From Zootoca vivipara (lineage: Eukaryota): DNA of 64,000 nucleotides. Position numbers and translations under genes: made by a program. The notes under the pieces were generated by a model. It ran no database searches. It saw only the letters and a program-made list of their open reading frames with translations, and was not told where the DNA came from. Where the stretch lies: contig NC_083288.1 in NCBI RefSeq assembly GCF_963506605.1, forward strand, positions 38,502,001 through 38,566,000, read 5' to 3'. Positions 4,461 to 24,925 of this stretch are shown one piece after another (positions within the stretch are counted from its first letter, which is position 1; every line of letters starts with the position of its first letter).

Positions 4461-5198
4461 GAAAGCAGGACTGCGAATAACCATTCTGATACCATCATGA
4501 ATAATCATGAATGCACAATAAATATGATACATGTAGAGGCCCTATGAGCCCAAAGGCTGGGGGCTTTTTTGGGGTGGAGGGTGGAGCCACCCAGCCCAGT
4601 GCTTCTCATCTCAAGGCCAGGGCCTTAATTTATTAATTAATTAAATGATGCCAGCATTAGCCACAGCAGGCTCTCCTGGAGCCCAGCCAATGCTGCATGC
4701 TGATGCTGGGCCTGGGGATCTGCTTTATGGGAACTCCTGGCATTGCCACAAATGGCCAACCATAATAAACAAGCAGGTTGGCATGGGAATGAATGCTCAA
4801 TGCATCTCGGGAGTTCCTGGACTCCTTGCAGTTGTTGTGGTTATTTGCTTATATCCCGTTGGCCTTCCCGAAGGAGCCGCATCTTAATAACAATTCCAGT
4901 AGAGGCTGTGTTTCCCACCTACCTGCAAAGGACACCACCGGCTTCTTGCTCTCCTCCTTAGCCTCTGAACTCAGTGCTGCAGAAAGGCTGGAGAGGAAGA
5001 AACACAGAGGTGTGAGAAAATGCAGAGATCCTTCCTCCCTCCCCCAATAGAGCATAGTCTGTGTTAAAAGGCGCTCGATTACCTGAAGATGGCAATCTCT
5101 CCATAGTTGTTCCCAGCTGCCAAGTACTTGCCACATGGCGAGACGCTCTGGGAGTAGACAGTCATGTGCAAGAGTTCCAGGGATCGCTGAATATCCAT
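194..5198 (-). CDS. THOC6: THO complex subunit 6 (WD40), partial. Coding exons 5198-5083, 4987-4923, 3452-3349, 3248-3211, 3114-3066, 2973-2902, 2513-2411, 1955-1906, 1011-949, 304-194; remaining exons lie before position 1
   Basis: Spliced translation [257 protein letters not shown] matches recalled human THOC6. All introns are GT-AG with compatible phases. Confidence 0.97.
576..665. mobile_element. 90-bp hAT-type MITE (TIR CATAGCTGCCAAGTT)
   Basis: TIRs plus 8-bp TSD GCAAGAGC; other copies at 5296-5386 and 60768-60857. Confidence 0.9.
949..1011 (-). CDS. THOC6: THOC6 exon, 63 nt
   Basis: [21 protein letters not shown]. Confidence 0.95.
1289..1424. mobile_element. 136-bp palindromic hAT MITE (CAGGC...GCCTG)
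   Basis: TIRs plus 8-bp TSD TTCTGGAT. Confidence 0.9.
1906..1955 (-). CDS. THOC6: THOC6 exon, 50 nt
   Basis: [17 protein letters not shown]. Confidence 0.93.
2411..2513 (-). CDS. THOC6: THOC6 exon, 103 nt
   Basis: [34 protein letters not shown] (GH...WD repeat). Confidence 0.95.
2902..2973 (-). CDS. THOC6: THOC6 exon, 72 nt
   Basis: [24 protein letters not shown]. Confidence 0.95.
3066..3114 (-). CDS. THOC6: THOC6 exon, 49 nt
   Basis: [16 protein letters not shown]. Confidence 0.93.
3211..3248 (-). CDS. THOC6: THOC6 exon, 38 nt
   Basis: [12 protein letters not shown]. Confidence 0.93.
3349..3452 (-). CDS. THOC6: THOC6 exon, 104 nt
   Basis: [35 protein letters not shown]. Confidence 0.95.
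4073..4460 (+). mobile_element. L2-type LINE 3' fragment with (ATT)n tail
   Basis: [12 protein letters not shown]...RTLRSS...LLAVP, followed by a RAFSVA...LWNALP-type terminus. Confidence 0.8.
4923..4987 (-). CDS. THOC6: THOC6 exon, 65 nt
   Basis: [22 protein letters not shown]; AG/GT flanks. Confidence 0.95.
5083..5198 (-). CDS. THOC6: THOC6 first coding exon (equivalent to human exon 2), 116 nt
   Basis: ccag|ATG GAT ATT...ATC TTC AG|gtaatc; [38 protein letters not shown]. Confidence 0.95.
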
Positions 5199-5295
5199 CT
5201 GGCAAGAGGAACAAGCAGGAGAAGTCAAGGCACAATACATGCTGCAAATCATCTGGCTCGCTCCACAAACGGAGATTTAAATACTGCATCTAATG

Positions 5296-5386
5296 CATAG
5301 CTGCCAAGTTATCCCTTTTTTTAAAGGGATTTTCCCTTATGCTGAATAGGCTTCCTCGCGAGAAAAGGGAAAACTTGGCAGCTATG
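5296..5386. mobile_element. 90-bp hAT-type MITE copy
   Basis: TIRs plus 8-bp TSD ATCTAATG. Confidence 0.9.
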
Positions 5387-5739
5387 ATCTAATGTGAGTT
5401 TTTAAAATGCCCCGTGGGTCAACATAACGCTTTTGTTTTGCTACTGCTTGTTTAATATGGTCACGATTTATATTTTGATGGTAAGCTGCCTTGGTTTTGA
5501 GTTTTAATTTTGCTGCGGTACTTATATATTTTTTCTATCACTCTACCTTGAGTTTGATTTTATAAGAAAACCAACTTAACAGAAATTACTGTAAAATAAA
5601 ATTTTAAACCACTTGATAATGCTGAGCGCTGAGAGTGGAGCAAAAAGAGGAGCCGCATTGCAGCAAACGTTAGTCCAGGCAAAGCGCACACTCTATGCAC
5701 ACTGTCCGGGGAGTAAGCCCATTGAACACCGTGGGACTT

Positions 5740-6540
5740 ACTTCTGAGTAAGCACGCAAACGACCGCGATGTTAAACTGCTCATCCAAACCCGCCCCGGT
5801 CAATGGGAGCCAGCGGCGGTGCAGGAGCGACGCGCTTTCCTTTATCCTTCGCTTAACGCCGCCAATGCCAAAGTCGGACACTAGGGGGGCGCGCACGCAC
5901 CCTTGAGACCTTGTCTCGTCTCTATGATTACAAAGAGCCGGAACGACGAGAAACCGCAAGGCACGACGGGATTCGGAGGCTCCGCGGTCAAAGCAACATA
6001 GACCGAGAGTGTAAAAAGGAACTACGTTTCCCAGCACACATCGCGCTAGTATCGGAAGGTTCCCCCCTCCTCGCTCGTCACGTGAAAACGAAATTTGGTC
6101 GCTGGTTTACACTCTGCTGGTTCCCCAGGCTGCTGTAGAGGCGCCTCCGTTGTGAAGACCAGCGTGAGGAACACACTTCCGAACGGTAAGAGGTATATAT
6201 TTTAAAATCCCCTGCCGCTATGTTAACGGCGCGTGCGCACACGCTTATCGCCAGACCCGGATTTTAACCCGCCTCCCGCCCGCCCCGCGTGTTGTCTGCA
6301 CCGACCGTTATTGGCGTCACCTTCCTTCCACCGCACAGCGGCAGCCGCACGTACCTCAGAGAATCAAGGGGCGCCCAGCCCCACCTTGAATATAACCACG
6401 CCCTTTCCTGTGGAGTGGACACGCCCACCAAGTTGTGGCAAGGCTCCGCGAGCGCAAAGCATCTTGGGATTCCGGTATTTCTGTTAGCCCTGTAGCAAGG
6501 CGTCATGGGAGCGCCTTTAAATGGCTGCCTGTGAGCGCAA
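5740..6540. promoter_or_regulatory. CpG-island bidirectional promoter shared by THOC6 (-) and HCFC1R1 (+)
   Basis: CpG-rich stretch between head-to-head genes. ZNF143-type motif ACTACGTTTCCCAGCA at 6021-6036, GTCACGTG at 6077-6084, ETS-like CACTTCCG at 6174-6181, GC boxes near 6270-6290. Candidate donors: plus gaacg|gtaag after 6185, minus gagt|gtaaac after 6111. Confidence 0.8.
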
Positions 6541-7877
6541 AGGCTGCTGGGATTCCCAAACCTTGGCAGGGAGAGCTAAGCGCTAGTCGGGTGGGTCAAG
6601 GCAAACTTCCTTTATCCTGAAGTGGCCTTAAGGATCACTGGAGAGCGACCTGCTGTCCTTTTTATATCATGAGCTTTTAGGACAAAAAGGGGCAGTTGCA
6701 GAGTTATCGTAAACACATTTGCAACCTCAAAATCAAAAACACAACACTTTTAAGGATGGTAGAGGTGAATCATACACAACCATCAGGTTAAGGTTACCAG
6801 ATTTTTTTCAATGAATCTGGGGACACTTTTCAACTTACTACTAAATAGATGGAATTCGTCAGGGGACTGATTTGTAAATCTGTCCCTGGGAAACGGGGAC
6901 GTCTGGTAACCTTACATCAGGTATTACTTTGAACAGACACACTGCGTTCTAGATTTATGCACATCTTCCAAGAGTTATATAATGGAATAGAATAATTTAT
7001 TATTGGCCAAGTACATTTTCCAACATACTTGGAATTTGTTTCGGCTACATTGCAATGTAAAAATACGCACACTGTTCCACTTAACAATACAAATAAGCAT
7101 AGAAACCCACCCATAATTGACCTCCCCTTCAACTACACATCTACAAATTTAACAATGGCACAAGGGAAAAATATAAATTATATATTTATCCAATATAAAG
7201 ACCGCTATCTGATGAAAACGCTTTGCTTGATTAAGGTGTTGGAAACCTAAAGAGCATCTGCAGAGACCCCTGTGATAAGAGAGGAAGGAGCTTTGTATGT
7301 GGGACTCAGCCTTACATCTCAAAATGAGCAGCTTGAAAAGCACCTGAAGACAACAGGTGCAACGTCTAATGCAGTGGCTTTTCAAAGGAATTCATTCATT
7401 CATTCACCACCCATTTTCCCCGGCGGAGACTCAATGTGGCTTACAGACAAAATAGGAACAAATAGGATTTAAAAGTACGCAAAGGACCCACTTAATAAAA
7501 AGATCATGTGAGACCAGCTTCCTTGCTCATATCAATTGCCCCCTAAAGTGCACAGCTTCAGAGGGTCATTGGCTATGCTCAGTCATATACAGGGTAATGG
7601 GAAGGCTCTTCAGGCCTGGTCAGTGTTCTGCATGAACCAAGTACAAACCCTAGGATGCTCTCTCAAATCCTTTCTAACACACAGCAATGCACTTCCATCA
7701 ATATACTAGCTCCACTTTGCATTGGGCTGAAGGCTCCAGAAAAATCTTTTAAAAATAGACAGCTTTTTCACAGGTTGGTGTGATTCAACAGCTCCCTTGC
7801 ACTAGCAGTGTTTCAGGGCAGGATTAGCGCTACAGAAGAGAGTCTCAGTTTAACACCCTTCATGTTTTACCTCACAG

Positions 7878-8071
7878 ATGGATCAGACAACTGGCCAGCA
7901 ATCGCCAACAATTATTCCAACCAGCCCGTCCACGTGCTGCTCCTTCTTGGCTGGGAGCAGGGGTTGGAGCCACACCATGCCCTCAGGCAGGCAATGGCAC
8001 ACAGCACGCAGAATGCCATGGATAAGGCAAAGCCAGGGCTTGGTGAACTTGAATAAAAGACAGCAGTCCCG
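7878..8071 (+). CDS. HCFC1R1: HCFC1R1 coding exon 1
   Basis: ttttacctcacag|ATG GAT CAG ACA...TCC CG|gtaagc; phase compatible with next exon; weakly conserved N-terminus. Confidence 0.75.
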
Positions 8072-10231
8072 GTAAGCATGTGCACAATGAGGCTTTTTGT
8101 TTGGGTGAAGAGGAAAGGATACGGTACATTTTGAGGATGGGTTGAGGGAGAGTAAAGTGGATTTTGACAGCGCCCACCTCTCTGGCATTTATTCACAGGC
8201 AAAAAAGTGACCGACCTGTTGGAAGCTTTTAAAAACATGCCAGGGAAGGAACATGCAGCCATTTCGTTGGGCTTCTTATTTTGCAGCTTTGTTTTGAAGG
8301 AAAGAGGCAAAAGGGCAGACAGTGGGCTACAGTCATAAACTCGCAGGGAACTTACTGTAATTGATTACAGGAATTTATATATTCTGAAGGCACTTTACAA
8401 TGCTGTTCACACACAATTTAGGTAAAATAACTGTAACAAGACAGTGAAACTCAGCAATGTAAAACATTTAAAATGTATTTACTTGCCAGCTATATAACAA
8501 CGTAGGCACTAGGCAAGCCTCTCTGGGGGAGGTATTTCACTCCTGCTGTCTTATACCTTGTCTCAGATGGCAAGTACACTTGTAGAAGATTCTTGGCTAA
8601 AGATCTTAAGGTATATATAGAGGTACGCAGCCCTTCAAGCATTCTGGTTCTGTAAAGAGCTTTAAAGATCACGGGGTGGGTGCAGAGCCGTAGCTAGGTG
8701 ATCTTGCACCCCTGGCAGGACCGTCCAGATTGCGCCCCCTAGCCATGGACAAATTAGCTCTTCTTTCCGCCTCGCCTCCAACCCTGCCCCAATTCAATTC
8801 ACACTCTTATTTAAAACCTTTTATTACAGTATAAGGCAATAATCGATATTTTTATTTATAGACATATTTATGTACATATTTTAGCCAATTTTGCGCCCCC
8901 TCCTTGCCTGCGCCCCTGGTGGGGCCCCACCTCACCACCCCCCTAGCTACGTCCCTGGGTAGGTGTGGGCGGGGAGAAGAGAAAAAACATAATTCAGTGC
9001 TGTGGGGAAGGAAGGAGGGGCCCTGCAAACCCATGGACAGCTTTTGGGAGATCTTTGGGTCTCGAGTACAACTGTAGCTTTTTGTTTTAGGTGCCGGTCA
9101 ACATCCTTTGCTTTCAAACGCCATCTGGAGCATAGAGATCAGTAAGTGTGACATAAGATGAGGAGTTATTGCTGATGCATGAAGTAATTAGGGCTAGAAA
9201 CTTCCATCTTCATATTCCACTTTCTTCTTCCATATACAGGTTGCAATTGCATCATGTTTTCTTAAGAGGTTTTTTTGTTTTGTTTTTTGCTGATTAAATA
9301 TATTCCGTTGTAGTTTTCTGAGAACAATGAATAAACTATTGAACATGCAATTTTCATTTAAGTAAGCGTGTGCTTTTTGTATCCAACACTAAAAATGCCA
9401 AATGGAGTTTGAAAGCTCTCCTGTTTGCCTTAATGTGCTGCAGTGCATGATGGGCCATGCTGAAGGGCAGAGTGGGGAGAGCGAGCTTGGCATGAATTGG
9501 TACAGGACAGGATTGGTGTCACTGGACCCTGGACTCCTTGCCATTGCTCTCTGTGCATCAACAGGGAACCCAGTTCCAAACACTTCCTCTCGGAGGACAA
9601 GATGGCTGCCCGCTTCAACTCTCTTAGCCTGGACAATGACCATGTCTACAGCTCCAATGGTTTCCCTCTCTACGATGAAGATCCCAAGTGGCAGGACGCA
9701 TATGCACGCCTGAAAGAACTTCAGCAGAGGTACTGGGGACCACAGCTTTGTGGGGGGGGCAGTCAGGGAAGCAGAATAGCAAGGCTTCATTGTGTGAGAT
9801 TTTCTCTCTCTTAGGCTGTCCCAAGATGGAGCAAGTGAAGAAGCTAGTTCGGACGAGGACGAGCACAACAGTGTACTTGTGGATGGGGAATTCATTATGG
9901 CAGATTGCCCCATACTGGCACATCCTTCCTTCCTACAAGAGCCTGTTGGAGGAGTCGGCCTTGTGCCTGAAGAGGTATTTCTTTCTCTGTAAGTATAGCA
10001 CAAGACTGGGGAAGAAAAGAGGAACCCTGGAAAGCATATTCATTTGCATCAGTAACTAGCATCCTCCCTCATTCTTACAGGAATCCTTGTACAGAAGTGG
10101 TCCTTTGGAGCCCTCCTAGTAACTCAGGCTTTCACAGTATCCGGACATTGATGGCTATCCCATCTTCCCTCAGCTCTCCTGCACAGCCTCAGCAAGAAGC
10201 AGGGGCAATACAAGAGGAAATGGAAATATAA
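7878..10231 (+). CDS. HCFC1R1: Host cell factor C1 regulator 1 (HPIP), 244 aa. Coding exons 7878-8071, 9091-9141, 9565-9729, 9815-9988, 10081-10231
   Basis: 735-nt spliced ORF with all introns phase 2 and GT-AG. FKRHLEHRDQEPSSKHFLSEDKMAARFNSLSLDNDHVY resembles recalled human TKRRLEEEQEPLRKQFLSEENMATHFSQLSLHNDHPY (HCF-binding motif DHxY). NPCTEVVLW resembles SPCSELLLW; C-terminus EEMEI resembles DIMEL. Head-to-head with THOC6 as in human. Confidence 0.9.
9091..9141 (+). CDS. HCFC1R1: HCFC1R1 coding exon 2 (51 nt, symmetric, skippable in frame)
   Basis: ttttag|G TGC CGG...GAT CA|gtaagt; CRSTSFAFKRHLEHRD. Confidence 0.85.
9565..9729 (+). CDS. HCFC1R1: HCFC1R1 coding exon 3 (contains DHVY HCF-binding motif)
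   Basis: EPSSKHFLSEDKMAARFNSLSLDNDHVYSSNGFPLYDEDPKWQDAYARLKELQQ. Confidence 0.93.
9815..9988 (+). CDS. HCFC1R1: HCFC1R1 coding exon 4 (acidic)
   Basis: ctcttag|G CTG TCC...TCT CT|gtaagt; open frame LSQDGASEEASSDEDEHNSVLVDGEFIMADCPILAHPSFLQEPVGGVGLVPEEVFLS. Confidence 0.85.
10081..10231 (+). CDS. HCFC1R1: HCFC1R1 last coding exon
   Basis: NPCTEVVLWSPP...AIQEEMEI*; TAA at 10229-10231. Confidence 0.9.
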
Positions 10232-10815
10232 GCTTTCACCCATCTTAGTCTAAAGCCAAAACTCATTTTTTTCCGGTTGGCCTGTCAGACTTTCAACAAA
10301 TGACATCATTATCCAGCATCAACACATTCGATTGCAAATGTTTTTACAGCAGCATAGGAACACCCATCATTTTTCAACCGACTGCAATAATCTGATCCTC
10401 TCCCCTCTACTAGATGTAAAAGCGTGTGTGTGGTCGTTTCTGGTGTGTGTGCATATTGCTGTTTTCTTTTCCAATAGGAAAGTTGCCAGTACTTAGGAAA
10501 AAGTACAACTGTGGTGTCTCAAGGTGCTATGACTTAAAATGTTAATATTGCTTTTTAGAAGTAATTTCAAAATGGACTTTCTGAACTTCTCCTTTTTATC
10601 AGAGAGCTGATATTTTAACTTCCATCCCACCCACCCCCAAAAAGTGTTTGTGTGAAGATCAACTAACATTTTCTCTTTCCTTGTGGGAAAGGCATCTTGA
10701 CCTTTTACTTCCAGAGAGCTGAAAACAAGATGTTATTCCAGAGGGTATCAACAAATGACAATATGACAAAAAAAAACCCTCTTGGCACCAAAGGATGGGT
10801 AGCCATGTTTGGAGA

Positions 10816-10858
10816 AATAAAAGAGTAAGAGGTGGTTTCATATCTAAATTTCTTTATT
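10816..10858. terminator. Convergent polyadenylation signals: AATAAA (+) 10816-10821 for HCFC1R1 and AATAAA (-) 10858-10853 for the RAB35 paralogue
   Basis: Both hexamers are in the sequence, downstream of the respective stop codons in AU-rich UTR-like DNA. Confidence 0.6.

Positions 10859-12082: not shown

Positions 12083-24925
<12,843 letters not shown>

Follow-up and report, generated by a model that had tools for sequence, protein, structure and literature searches.

Why HCFC1R1 encodes a far longer protein in a lizard than in placental mammals, and to which other gene the additional region is related, are questions raised by a 64,000-nucleotide (nt) stretch of the Zootoca vivipara genome (NCBI RefSeq assembly GCF_963506605.1, contig NC_083288.1, positions 38,502,001 to 38,566,000 of the forward strand; hereafter the window, numbered from its first letter). 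Within it, five coding exons on the forward strand, between 7878 and 10231, join into a frame of 244 amino acids (aa) plus stop. A sequence-only reading of the window had set this length against about 138 aa for the human protein; the lizard length is confirmed, and 138 aa is the length of a placental HCFC1R1 (P0068). The same reading proposed that HCFC1R1 and CCDC117 are ancient paralogs, and the evidence assembled here supports that proposal. We put a probability of about 0.8 on a reading in which the two genes are paralogs, likely separated by an early vertebrate whole-genome duplication (WGD), and in which the long form of HCFC1R1 is likely a mostly disordered shuttle protein that would bind HCF-1 through a DHVY motif and is predicted to contact CRM1.

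Results

Evidence that HCFC1R1 and CCDC117 are paralogs

We regard HCFC1R1 and CCDC117 as paralogs because four independent lines of evidence point the same way: intron positions, profile comparison, intermediate proteins that match both Pfam families, and paralogous neighboring genes. CCDC117 of this genome lies at G000:C17:1414751-1416950, where it adjoins an XBP1-like gene, and has five coding exons separated by four phase-2 introns; unlike it, the HCFC1R1 gene of the window does not stand beside XBP1. The four introns of lizard HCFC1R1 are likewise all in phase 2 and, when this genome's two genes are compared as the sequence-only reading had proposed, 4/4 fall in identical alignment columns, which is evidence independent of protein similarity. 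The short exon 2 of HCFC1R1 (9091..9141; 51 nt, phase 2-2, with a KR pair at 9116-9121) corresponds to exon 2 of CCDC117 in this genome, which has 57 nt. The segments that the same reading had named for CCDC117 have counterparts in a marsupial CCDC117 (P0180) and in the lizard CCDC117, in the order claimed, and helix, acidic stretch, core, ELVLW motif, and acidic tail follow one another identically in HCFC1R1 and CCDC117.

Profile comparison agrees. When aligned by hhalign with CCDC117, a profile of the broad HCFC1R1 set reached a probability of 99.2% (E=5.6e-20); the alignment covers 145 columns and runs from the KR pair as far as ELVLW. A squamate-only profile reached 95.6%. A hidden Markov model (HMM) of the long forms scored this genome's CCDC117 at 34.4 bits, against a maximum of 2.6 bits in 1000 shuffles, and the coelacanth protein matched lizard CCDC117 in blastp (E=1.3e-9). 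The Pfam cut-offs of both HPIP (PF15226) and CCDC117 (PF15810) were passed by 1 of 18 and 11 of 13 proteins in two sets and by 12 of 86 scanned among 135 new profile matches, the double passers coming from shark, coelacanth, caecilian, frog, gar, hagfish, lamprey, amphioxus, and two hemichordates. By atlas features, the top three matches of the coelacanth protein were CCDC117 clusters (0.92-0.93); plant clusters and fungal DUF6649, at 0.85-0.87, are leads only. The sequence-only reading had also seen the lizard protein as the bridge between the families. By itself it is a poor one, as detailed below; sharks, coelacanth, cyclostomes, and amphioxus are the bridge, their slower-evolving sequences closing the gap. 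A third family member is not evident in this genome, where PF15810 finds a single locus and PF15226 a single clear one, followed by a match at E=0.2.

One proposed point of likeness was rejected. The hexapeptide MDQTTG, which the sequence-only reading had matched to CCDC117, is a genuine identity but not a homologous one: it stands at the start of exon 1 in lizard HCFC1R1 and within exon 3 of marsupial CCDC117, lizard CCDC117 has another hexapeptide in that place, and the motif is present in just 2 of 15 reptile N-termini (Podarcis and Rhineura), the others being MDPTT-like. Any 6-mer in common occurred in 102 of 20000 shuffles, and the identity, although real, is attributed to chance.

The long form across animals and a proposed reciprocal motif loss

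Homolog searches recovered forms of 240-350 aa from squamates, tuatara, turtle, coelacanth, sharks, and rays. Searched against 1.84 billion representatives, a profile of 20 long forms matched 203 proteins (E<=0.001), and the best 150 of the 203 were used, 135 of them new. The 30 matches named include HCFC1R1-type proteins from caecilian, Xenopus, gar, sturgeons, reedfish, and elephant shark, CCDC117 proteins from marsupial, lungfish, horn shark, reedfish, and teleost, and others from hagfish, lamprey, amphioxus, two hemichordates, two echinoderms, two cnidarians, two sponges, and a fly. On the 5′ side of the basic stretch, a W..VP..MPW motif is conserved in sharks, coelacanth, hagfish, and many invertebrate matches, with a P..[MIL][PT]W pattern in 43 of the 135 new matches; it is absent from mammals and nearly all CCDC117 proteins and degenerate in squamates, including the remnant in the fast-evolving exon 1 of the lizard gene (7878..8071, aa 1-65). 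A Heptranchias model (P0040) has the front block twice, through tandem exon duplication or annotation error.

Motifs were counted in hand-picked groups of 21 squamate long forms, 24 other long forms, and 18 CCDC117 proteins. The KxFxSEE block occurs in 20/21 squamates by a strict expression, 24/24 other long forms, and 0/18 CCDC117 proteins; the export pattern that follows it in 21/21, 24/24, and 0/18; and the HCF-1 motif in 21/21, 24/24, and 1/18, where it lies elsewhere in the protein. A bipartite basic pattern is distributed in the opposite way (0/21, 1/24, and 14/18), and the ELVLW-like motif and acidic tail are present in both HCFC1R1 and CCDC117. The KxFxSEE block and export pattern also occur in cyclostomes, amphioxus, hemichordates, cnidarians, and sponges. 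DHxY follows the export pattern in all long gnathostome forms, cyclostomes, amphioxus, hemichordates, and cnidarians and is absent from the sponge, echinoderm, and fly members named.

From these distributions we infer that the long form is ancestral and that the paralogs lost complementary parts. The ancestral animal protein would have carried, in order, a basic stretch, export signal, HCF-1 motif, helix, acidic stretch, core, ELVLW motif, and acidic M-E/D-L tail. After the duplication, CCDC117 would have dropped the HCF-1 motif together with the export signal and acquired a bipartite basic cluster resembling a nuclear localization signal, and HCFC1R1 would have retained the front motifs and shed the helix and exon 4 stepwise in mammals. 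The sequence-only reading had proposed that mammalian HCFC1R1 lost the central region; this is supported, but it is incomplete, the loss being apparently reciprocal, with CCDC117 lacking the front motifs.

Mammalian HCFC1R1 proteins lack the helix, and placental-type proteins have no exon 4 residues at all. With mammalian exon borders inferred from alignment rather than from mammalian genomes, a remnant of 18-23 residues is left between the exon 3/4 and 4/5 junctions in four marsupial species, and none in two other marsupial models. Exon 4 (9815..9988) can be removed without a frameshift because it is in phase 2-2; in an alligator model, its far half has been lost instead. In HCFC1R1 of Tammar wallaby and opossum (P0107, P0208), the HCF-1 motif is broken, H or Y being replaced, and some marsupials may have lost HCF-1 binding.

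The family C-terminus conforms to M[DE][LIVM] in 100 of 185 sequences, and two interpretations of this tail were rejected. The targeting complex of cytosolic iron-sulfur (Fe-S) assembly (CIA) is reported to recognize a C-terminal [LIM]-[DES]-[WF] tripeptide (PMC10623007), which 3 of the 185 sequences fit; the window protein ends M-E-I. For a mimic of the Hsp90 EEVD tail, the papers searched gave no support; two heat-stress transcriptomes mention CCDC117 solely in a table row.

Age of the duplication

A tree of 43 rows and 202 columns, with rows hand-chosen from the matches, short mammalian forms excluded, and eight rows lacking a database name, recovered an HCFC1R1 group of 19 rows (support 100/99) and a CCDC117 group of 9 rows (98/98). 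Both groups hold cartilaginous, ray-finned, and lobe-finned members, and therefore the duplication preceded the gnathostome radiation. The lizard protein, whose gene stands beside THOC6-like and BICDL2-like genes, falls in the gnathostome HCFC1R1 clade (100/99), which cyclostomes join at 86/73.

The neighbors of HCFC1R1, whose names (THOC6-, BICDL2-, RAB35-, and MMP25-like) we presume from their sequences, add to the evidence of the tree. Three of the four neighbors tested (RAB35-, BICDL2-, MMP25-, and KREMEN2-like) have a paralog on the contig that carries CCDC117, which makes up 42 of 1440 Mb, or 2.9% of the genome: the best in-genome paralogs there are 85% identical for the RAB35-like exon, 49% for the BICDL2-like exon, both within the window, and 55% for the MMP25-like gene just beyond the window end. 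This is the pattern expected of whole-genome duplication, which we consider a probable origin of the pair with good confidence. The fourth, a KREMEN2-like gene at C13:33.5 Mb, 5 Mb from the window, has no partner there; queries with WSC, kringle, and exon sequences found no KREMEN1-like gene in the whole genome or near CCDC117, through loss or search miss, and the KREMEN comparison is uninformative on WGD. A literature search on the chromosome pair yielded nothing usable.

The RAB35-like exon lies at 14551-14835 on the reverse strand, between HCFC1R1 and the BICDL2-like gene. The second copy, 85% identical across 41 aa, adjoins a BICDL1-like gene on the CCDC117 contig, and the orientation of RAB35 relative to BICDL is unlike at the two loci. 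The gene in the window is probably a retained RAB35 ohnolog, which mammals are not known to have.

A predicted export signal beside the HCF-1-binding motif

Exon 3 (9565..9729, 165 nt) contains KHFLSE, the export-signal pattern, the HCF-1-binding motif, and most of the helix. Human HCFC1R1 reportedly associates with HCF-1 and has an export signal dependent on CRM1 (bioRxiv 10.1101/2020.03.13.991679; PMC3258183), and the HCF-1 Kelch domain is reported to be bound by the consensus [DENQ]HxY (PMC13061025). DHVY at D107-Y110 of the lizard protein (9638..9649) fits this consensus, its D, H, and Y being invariant in 20/20 aligned long forms. Class 1a export signals space their hydrophobic residues x3-x2-x, and M95-x3-F99-x2-L102-x-L104 (9602..9631) fits that spacing; the motif census and a model of the CRM1 groove both mark it as a predicted CRM1-type signal.

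For the model, residues 80-115, which are identical in the window protein, were combined with a salmon exportin-1 fragment. The complex scored 0.79, against 0.01 for the best of three controls, with at least 79% of contacts common between runs and a partner pLDDT (predicted local distance difference test) of 60-62; the modeled contacts ring a cysteine mapping to C528 of solved exportin-1. Among the pairs used for calibration, 51/78 solved and 2/108 mismatched microbial ones reached the mark, as did 71/105 solved and 2/126 unrelated eukaryotic ones. We lean toward a working export signal at M95-L104. The long form would then be a mostly disordered shuttle, engaging HCF-1 through DHVY and CRM1 through the preceding signal; the end of the export signal is three residues from the HCF-1 motif, a closeness that makes competition of HCF-1 and CRM1 for the segment probable. 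The ELVLW motif and acidic tail of both genes would probably dock a common partner. CCDC117 is described as nuclear and spindle-associated, with reported binding of CIA2B and MMS19 (PMC6370788).

Alternative explanations

The likeness of HCFC1R1 and CCDC117 could be convergence of short motifs in acidic disordered proteins, of which the MDQTTG identity is just such a coincidence, and several results obtained with lizard-type proteins weigh against common descent. Pfam CCDC117 (PF15810) gave no match at E<=10 to the Podarcis muralis ortholog (P0002) or to single exons, and sub-cut-off matches in 4 of 17 lepidosaur proteins; lizard HCFC1R1 and this genome's CCDC117 do not align significantly in blastp (E=0.058); and the CCDC117 HMM gives lizard HCFC1R1 7.3 bits, which 1 of 1000 shuffles equals, the squamate-only HMM scoring the same pair at 5.6 bits, above all 1000 shuffles. 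The profile check suggested by the sequence-only reading was split, with a match to HPIP, none to CCDC117 from the lizard protein alone, and a clear one between profiles. That profile-profile alignment and the coincidence of 4/4 introns refute convergence, against which the match of the coelacanth protein to lizard CCDC117 also speaks; we give it almost no credence. Scarcely more credible is a long form that arose when a short HPIP gene fused to a module from CCDC117: in Pfam's depiction of the shark and coelacanth proteins HPIP does precede CCDC117, but both front introns coincide too, the short mammalian HCFC1R1 has an ELLLW motif and M-E-L tail of its own, and the cnidarian, hemichordate, and amphioxus proteins with both halves contradict it. 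Less remote, if still quite improbable, is that the genes are paralogs by a duplication older than the vertebrates or by a single-gene event. The branch between vertebrates and invertebrates has a support of only 66/76, so the upper bound of the duplication's age is unfixed by the tree; a topology joining HCFC1R1 and CCDC117, with cyclostomes outside both, is neither rejected nor demonstrated (p-AU, approximately unbiased test, 0.229); an 88-column tree of the rear half breaks up both groups; the paralogous neighbors fall into two independent blocks, whose distances from CCDC117 are 7.5 and 18.5 Mb; and the KREMEN1-like partner was not found in this genome. Opposed to these points, the nine named invertebrate and two cyclostome matches contain no protein of CCDC117 type, lacking KxxISEE and bearing the bipartite cluster, and both neighbor blocks, independent as they are, fall in CCDC117's 2.9% of the genome. 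Paralogy through an early vertebrate WGD thus remains our preferred reading.

The functional part of that reading is also open to challenge, as HCF-1 binding and CRM1 shuttling of the long forms are themselves predictions. Homology might hold while the hydrophobic pattern is a helix docking some other conserved partner, export being left to a C-terminal signal. The invariant K, F, S, E, and E upstream exceed what CRM1 binding needs, and the mapped export signal of human HPIP is reportedly near the C-terminus, not before the HCF-1 motif. A leucine-rich pattern does follow ELVLW in 6/6 marsupial and 10/24 other long forms; by strict expression it is found in just 1/21 squamates, and not in the window protein, a distribution that suggests a second, later export signal. 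The export pattern follows the KxxISEE block in 87/89 block-bearing matches among the best 150 of 203, against 117 occurrences in 22075 positions overall, a ratio that is partly selected in that the matches were found by a profile containing those positions. The CRM1 model, for its part, joins a salmon fragment to a short disordered peptide, a class outside the tool's calibration, and may have passed through likeness to many solved exportin-1 complexes. What speaks for CRM1 is that the x3-x2-x spacing stays constant from sponges to mammals despite residue changes at the four hydrophobic positions, and that the model puts these four positions into the CRM1 groove. We retain M95-L104 as the candidate export signal and regard the docking helix as possible but unlikely.

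Structure and expression of the lizard gene

The HCFC1R1 gene itself is already annotated, in its Podarcis muralis ortholog. In the window, the coding exons 7878-8071, 9091-9141, 9565-9729, 9815-9988, and 10081-10231 have AG/GT borders throughout, and these splice signals, the open frame, and identity at 232/244 residues to P. muralis HCFC1R1 X1 (P0002) bear out the gene model; junctions 1-2 and 2-3 are based on splice signals and annotated orthologs. The high identity to P. muralis also marks the source of the window as lacertid-like. The Pfam HPIP match lies in exon 3, which alone scores 29.6 bits (E=1.1e-6), compared with 39.3 bits for P0002 and a cut-off of 22.1. Mean identity across squamates is 0.39 for the first coding exon and 0.85 for exon 3; exon 4 averages 62% identity across 19 other squamates. 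Exon 4 encodes the acidic stretch and the core common with CCDC117 and is as acidic as the sequence-only reading had noted, with 13 D/E and 0 K/R among the 58 aa of its 174 nt. Exon 5, with its stop at 10229-10231, encodes the EVVLWSPP motif (10094-10117) and the acidic EEMEI C-terminus (10214-10228), both common with CCDC117.

Exon 4 is spliced in, as RNA from four runs compared with 9520-10300 demonstrates. The joint 9729->9815 is crossed by five reads in X21, five in X22 that share one start, and contigs of both X1 and X2; the joint 9988->10081 is crossed by ten reads in X21 and again by contigs of both. None of the runs lists a joint that skips the exon, at a depth (36 and 12 raw reads) that could miss rare skipping. 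In the AlphaFold2 model of the 244-aa protein, the helical segment that the sequence-only reading had pointed out is the sole confident element, at residues 122-140 (pLDDT about 80, chain mean 53.5). This amphipathic helix spans the exon 3/4 junction (9683..9824) and is the counterpart of the CCDC117 "coiled coil." A fold search with this model was ruled out by its low confidence, and no solved structure matched the family profile.

THOC6-like exons lie upstream, head to head with HCFC1R1, and BICDL2-like exons downstream (read from open reading frames), which we take to be the human gene order as well. The THOC6-like gene and HCFC1R1 have in common a CpG island at 5000-7000 (CpG ratio about 0.85). 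A noncoding exon upstream of 7878 is expected because the ATG directly follows the AG acceptor; a candidate for its donor, ACG/GTAAGA (about 6185/6186, within 6170..6191 on the forward strand), lies in the island. A candidate polyadenylation signal is at 10816.

Several observations hint at variant transcripts. Use of an alternative donor within exon 4 (9969-9979, after 9974) would frameshift exon 5; two gecko models (P0013, P0024) terminate in such a shifted frame, and no use of the donor was seen in the RNA reads compared. Contigs of X1 (minor) and X2 and a few X21 reads extend 5′ of the exon 3 acceptor over 9520-9564, which suggests a retained or extended 5′ form of HCFC1R1; one UniRef model (P0001) reads this segment in frame. 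Exon 2, with its KR pair, is skipped in the gecko isoform P0024 and in the mammalian models P0136 and P0168, possibly as a conserved switch of nuclear import.

Discussion

The lizard protein can be set beside several known systems. With mammalian HCFC1R1/HPIP (PF15226) it has in common the KxFLSEE block, DHxY, ELxLW, the M-E-x tail, and THOC6-like and BICDL2-like neighbors, but at about 244 aa rather than 138 (placental) it retains the helix and the entire exon 4, its first coding exon is longer, and the C-terminal leucine-rich pattern is degenerate in squamates. With CCDC117 (PF15810) it has in common five coding exons, four phase-2 introns in equal places, and the order of the rear half; in contrast to it, CCDC117 lacks KxFxSEE, the export pattern (0/18), and an aligned DHxY and mostly bears the bipartite basic cluster (14/18), and lizard HCFC1R1 falls below the PF15810 cut-off. 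Uncharacterized proteins of hagfish, lamprey, Branchiostoma, Saccoglossus, Ptychodera, Nematostella, and Montipora have both halves in the same motif order, with the export pattern, DHxY, ELVLW-like motif, and acidic M-D/E-L tail, and differ from lizard HCFC1R1 in their longer disordered ends. The predicted signal resembles class 1a CRM1/XPO1 signals in its x3-x2-x spacing, its upstream acidic residues, and its modeled position around the C528 equivalent, and is unlike them in that it abuts an HCF-1-binding motif.

We found no paper linking HCFC1R1 with CCDC117, nor any evolutionary study under either name among the papers surveyed, a search that excluded subscription papers and family databases such as PANTHER; one study describes CCDC117 as having no other recognizable conserved domain (PMC6370788). 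The link was latent rather than hidden, as the double Pfam annotation of shark proteins already stands in public tables. What is new is the unreported paralogy and the export-signal hypothesis, both drawn from a known gene in its presumed ancestral long form.

These findings direct attention to the residues that matter, namely ELVLW and the acidic M-E-L tail, and to a candidate export signal that CCDC117 appears to have replaced with a cluster resembling a nuclear-import signal. They bear on what the rear half of CCDC117 binds and on how HCFC1R1 controls the localization of HCF-1, a step reported to be important for infection by herpes simplex virus 1 (bioRxiv 10.1101/2020.03.13.991679). A bolder idea, speculative and rather improbable, is that a single pan-animal shuttling adaptor survives in human as two halves, HCFC1R1 and CCDC117; the adaptor would combine an unrecognized CRM1 signal masked by HCF-1 with a rear docking module (helix, core, ELVLW, and acidic M-E-L tail) binding CIA2B, the Fe-S delivery factor reported as a CCDC117 partner (PMC6370788), in a family that may reach fungi (DUF6649) and plants. 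If this is true, the long forms of reptiles, sharks, and amphioxus would link HCF-1 chromatin complexes to the Fe-S delivery machinery in one chain. The relationship also puts names on many "uncharacterized" proteins of fish, sharks, and invertebrates and offers a clear case of reciprocal motif loss following duplication, uniting in one family two near-orphan human genes hitherto regarded as unrelated, their common ancestor reaching back to sponges and cnidarians.

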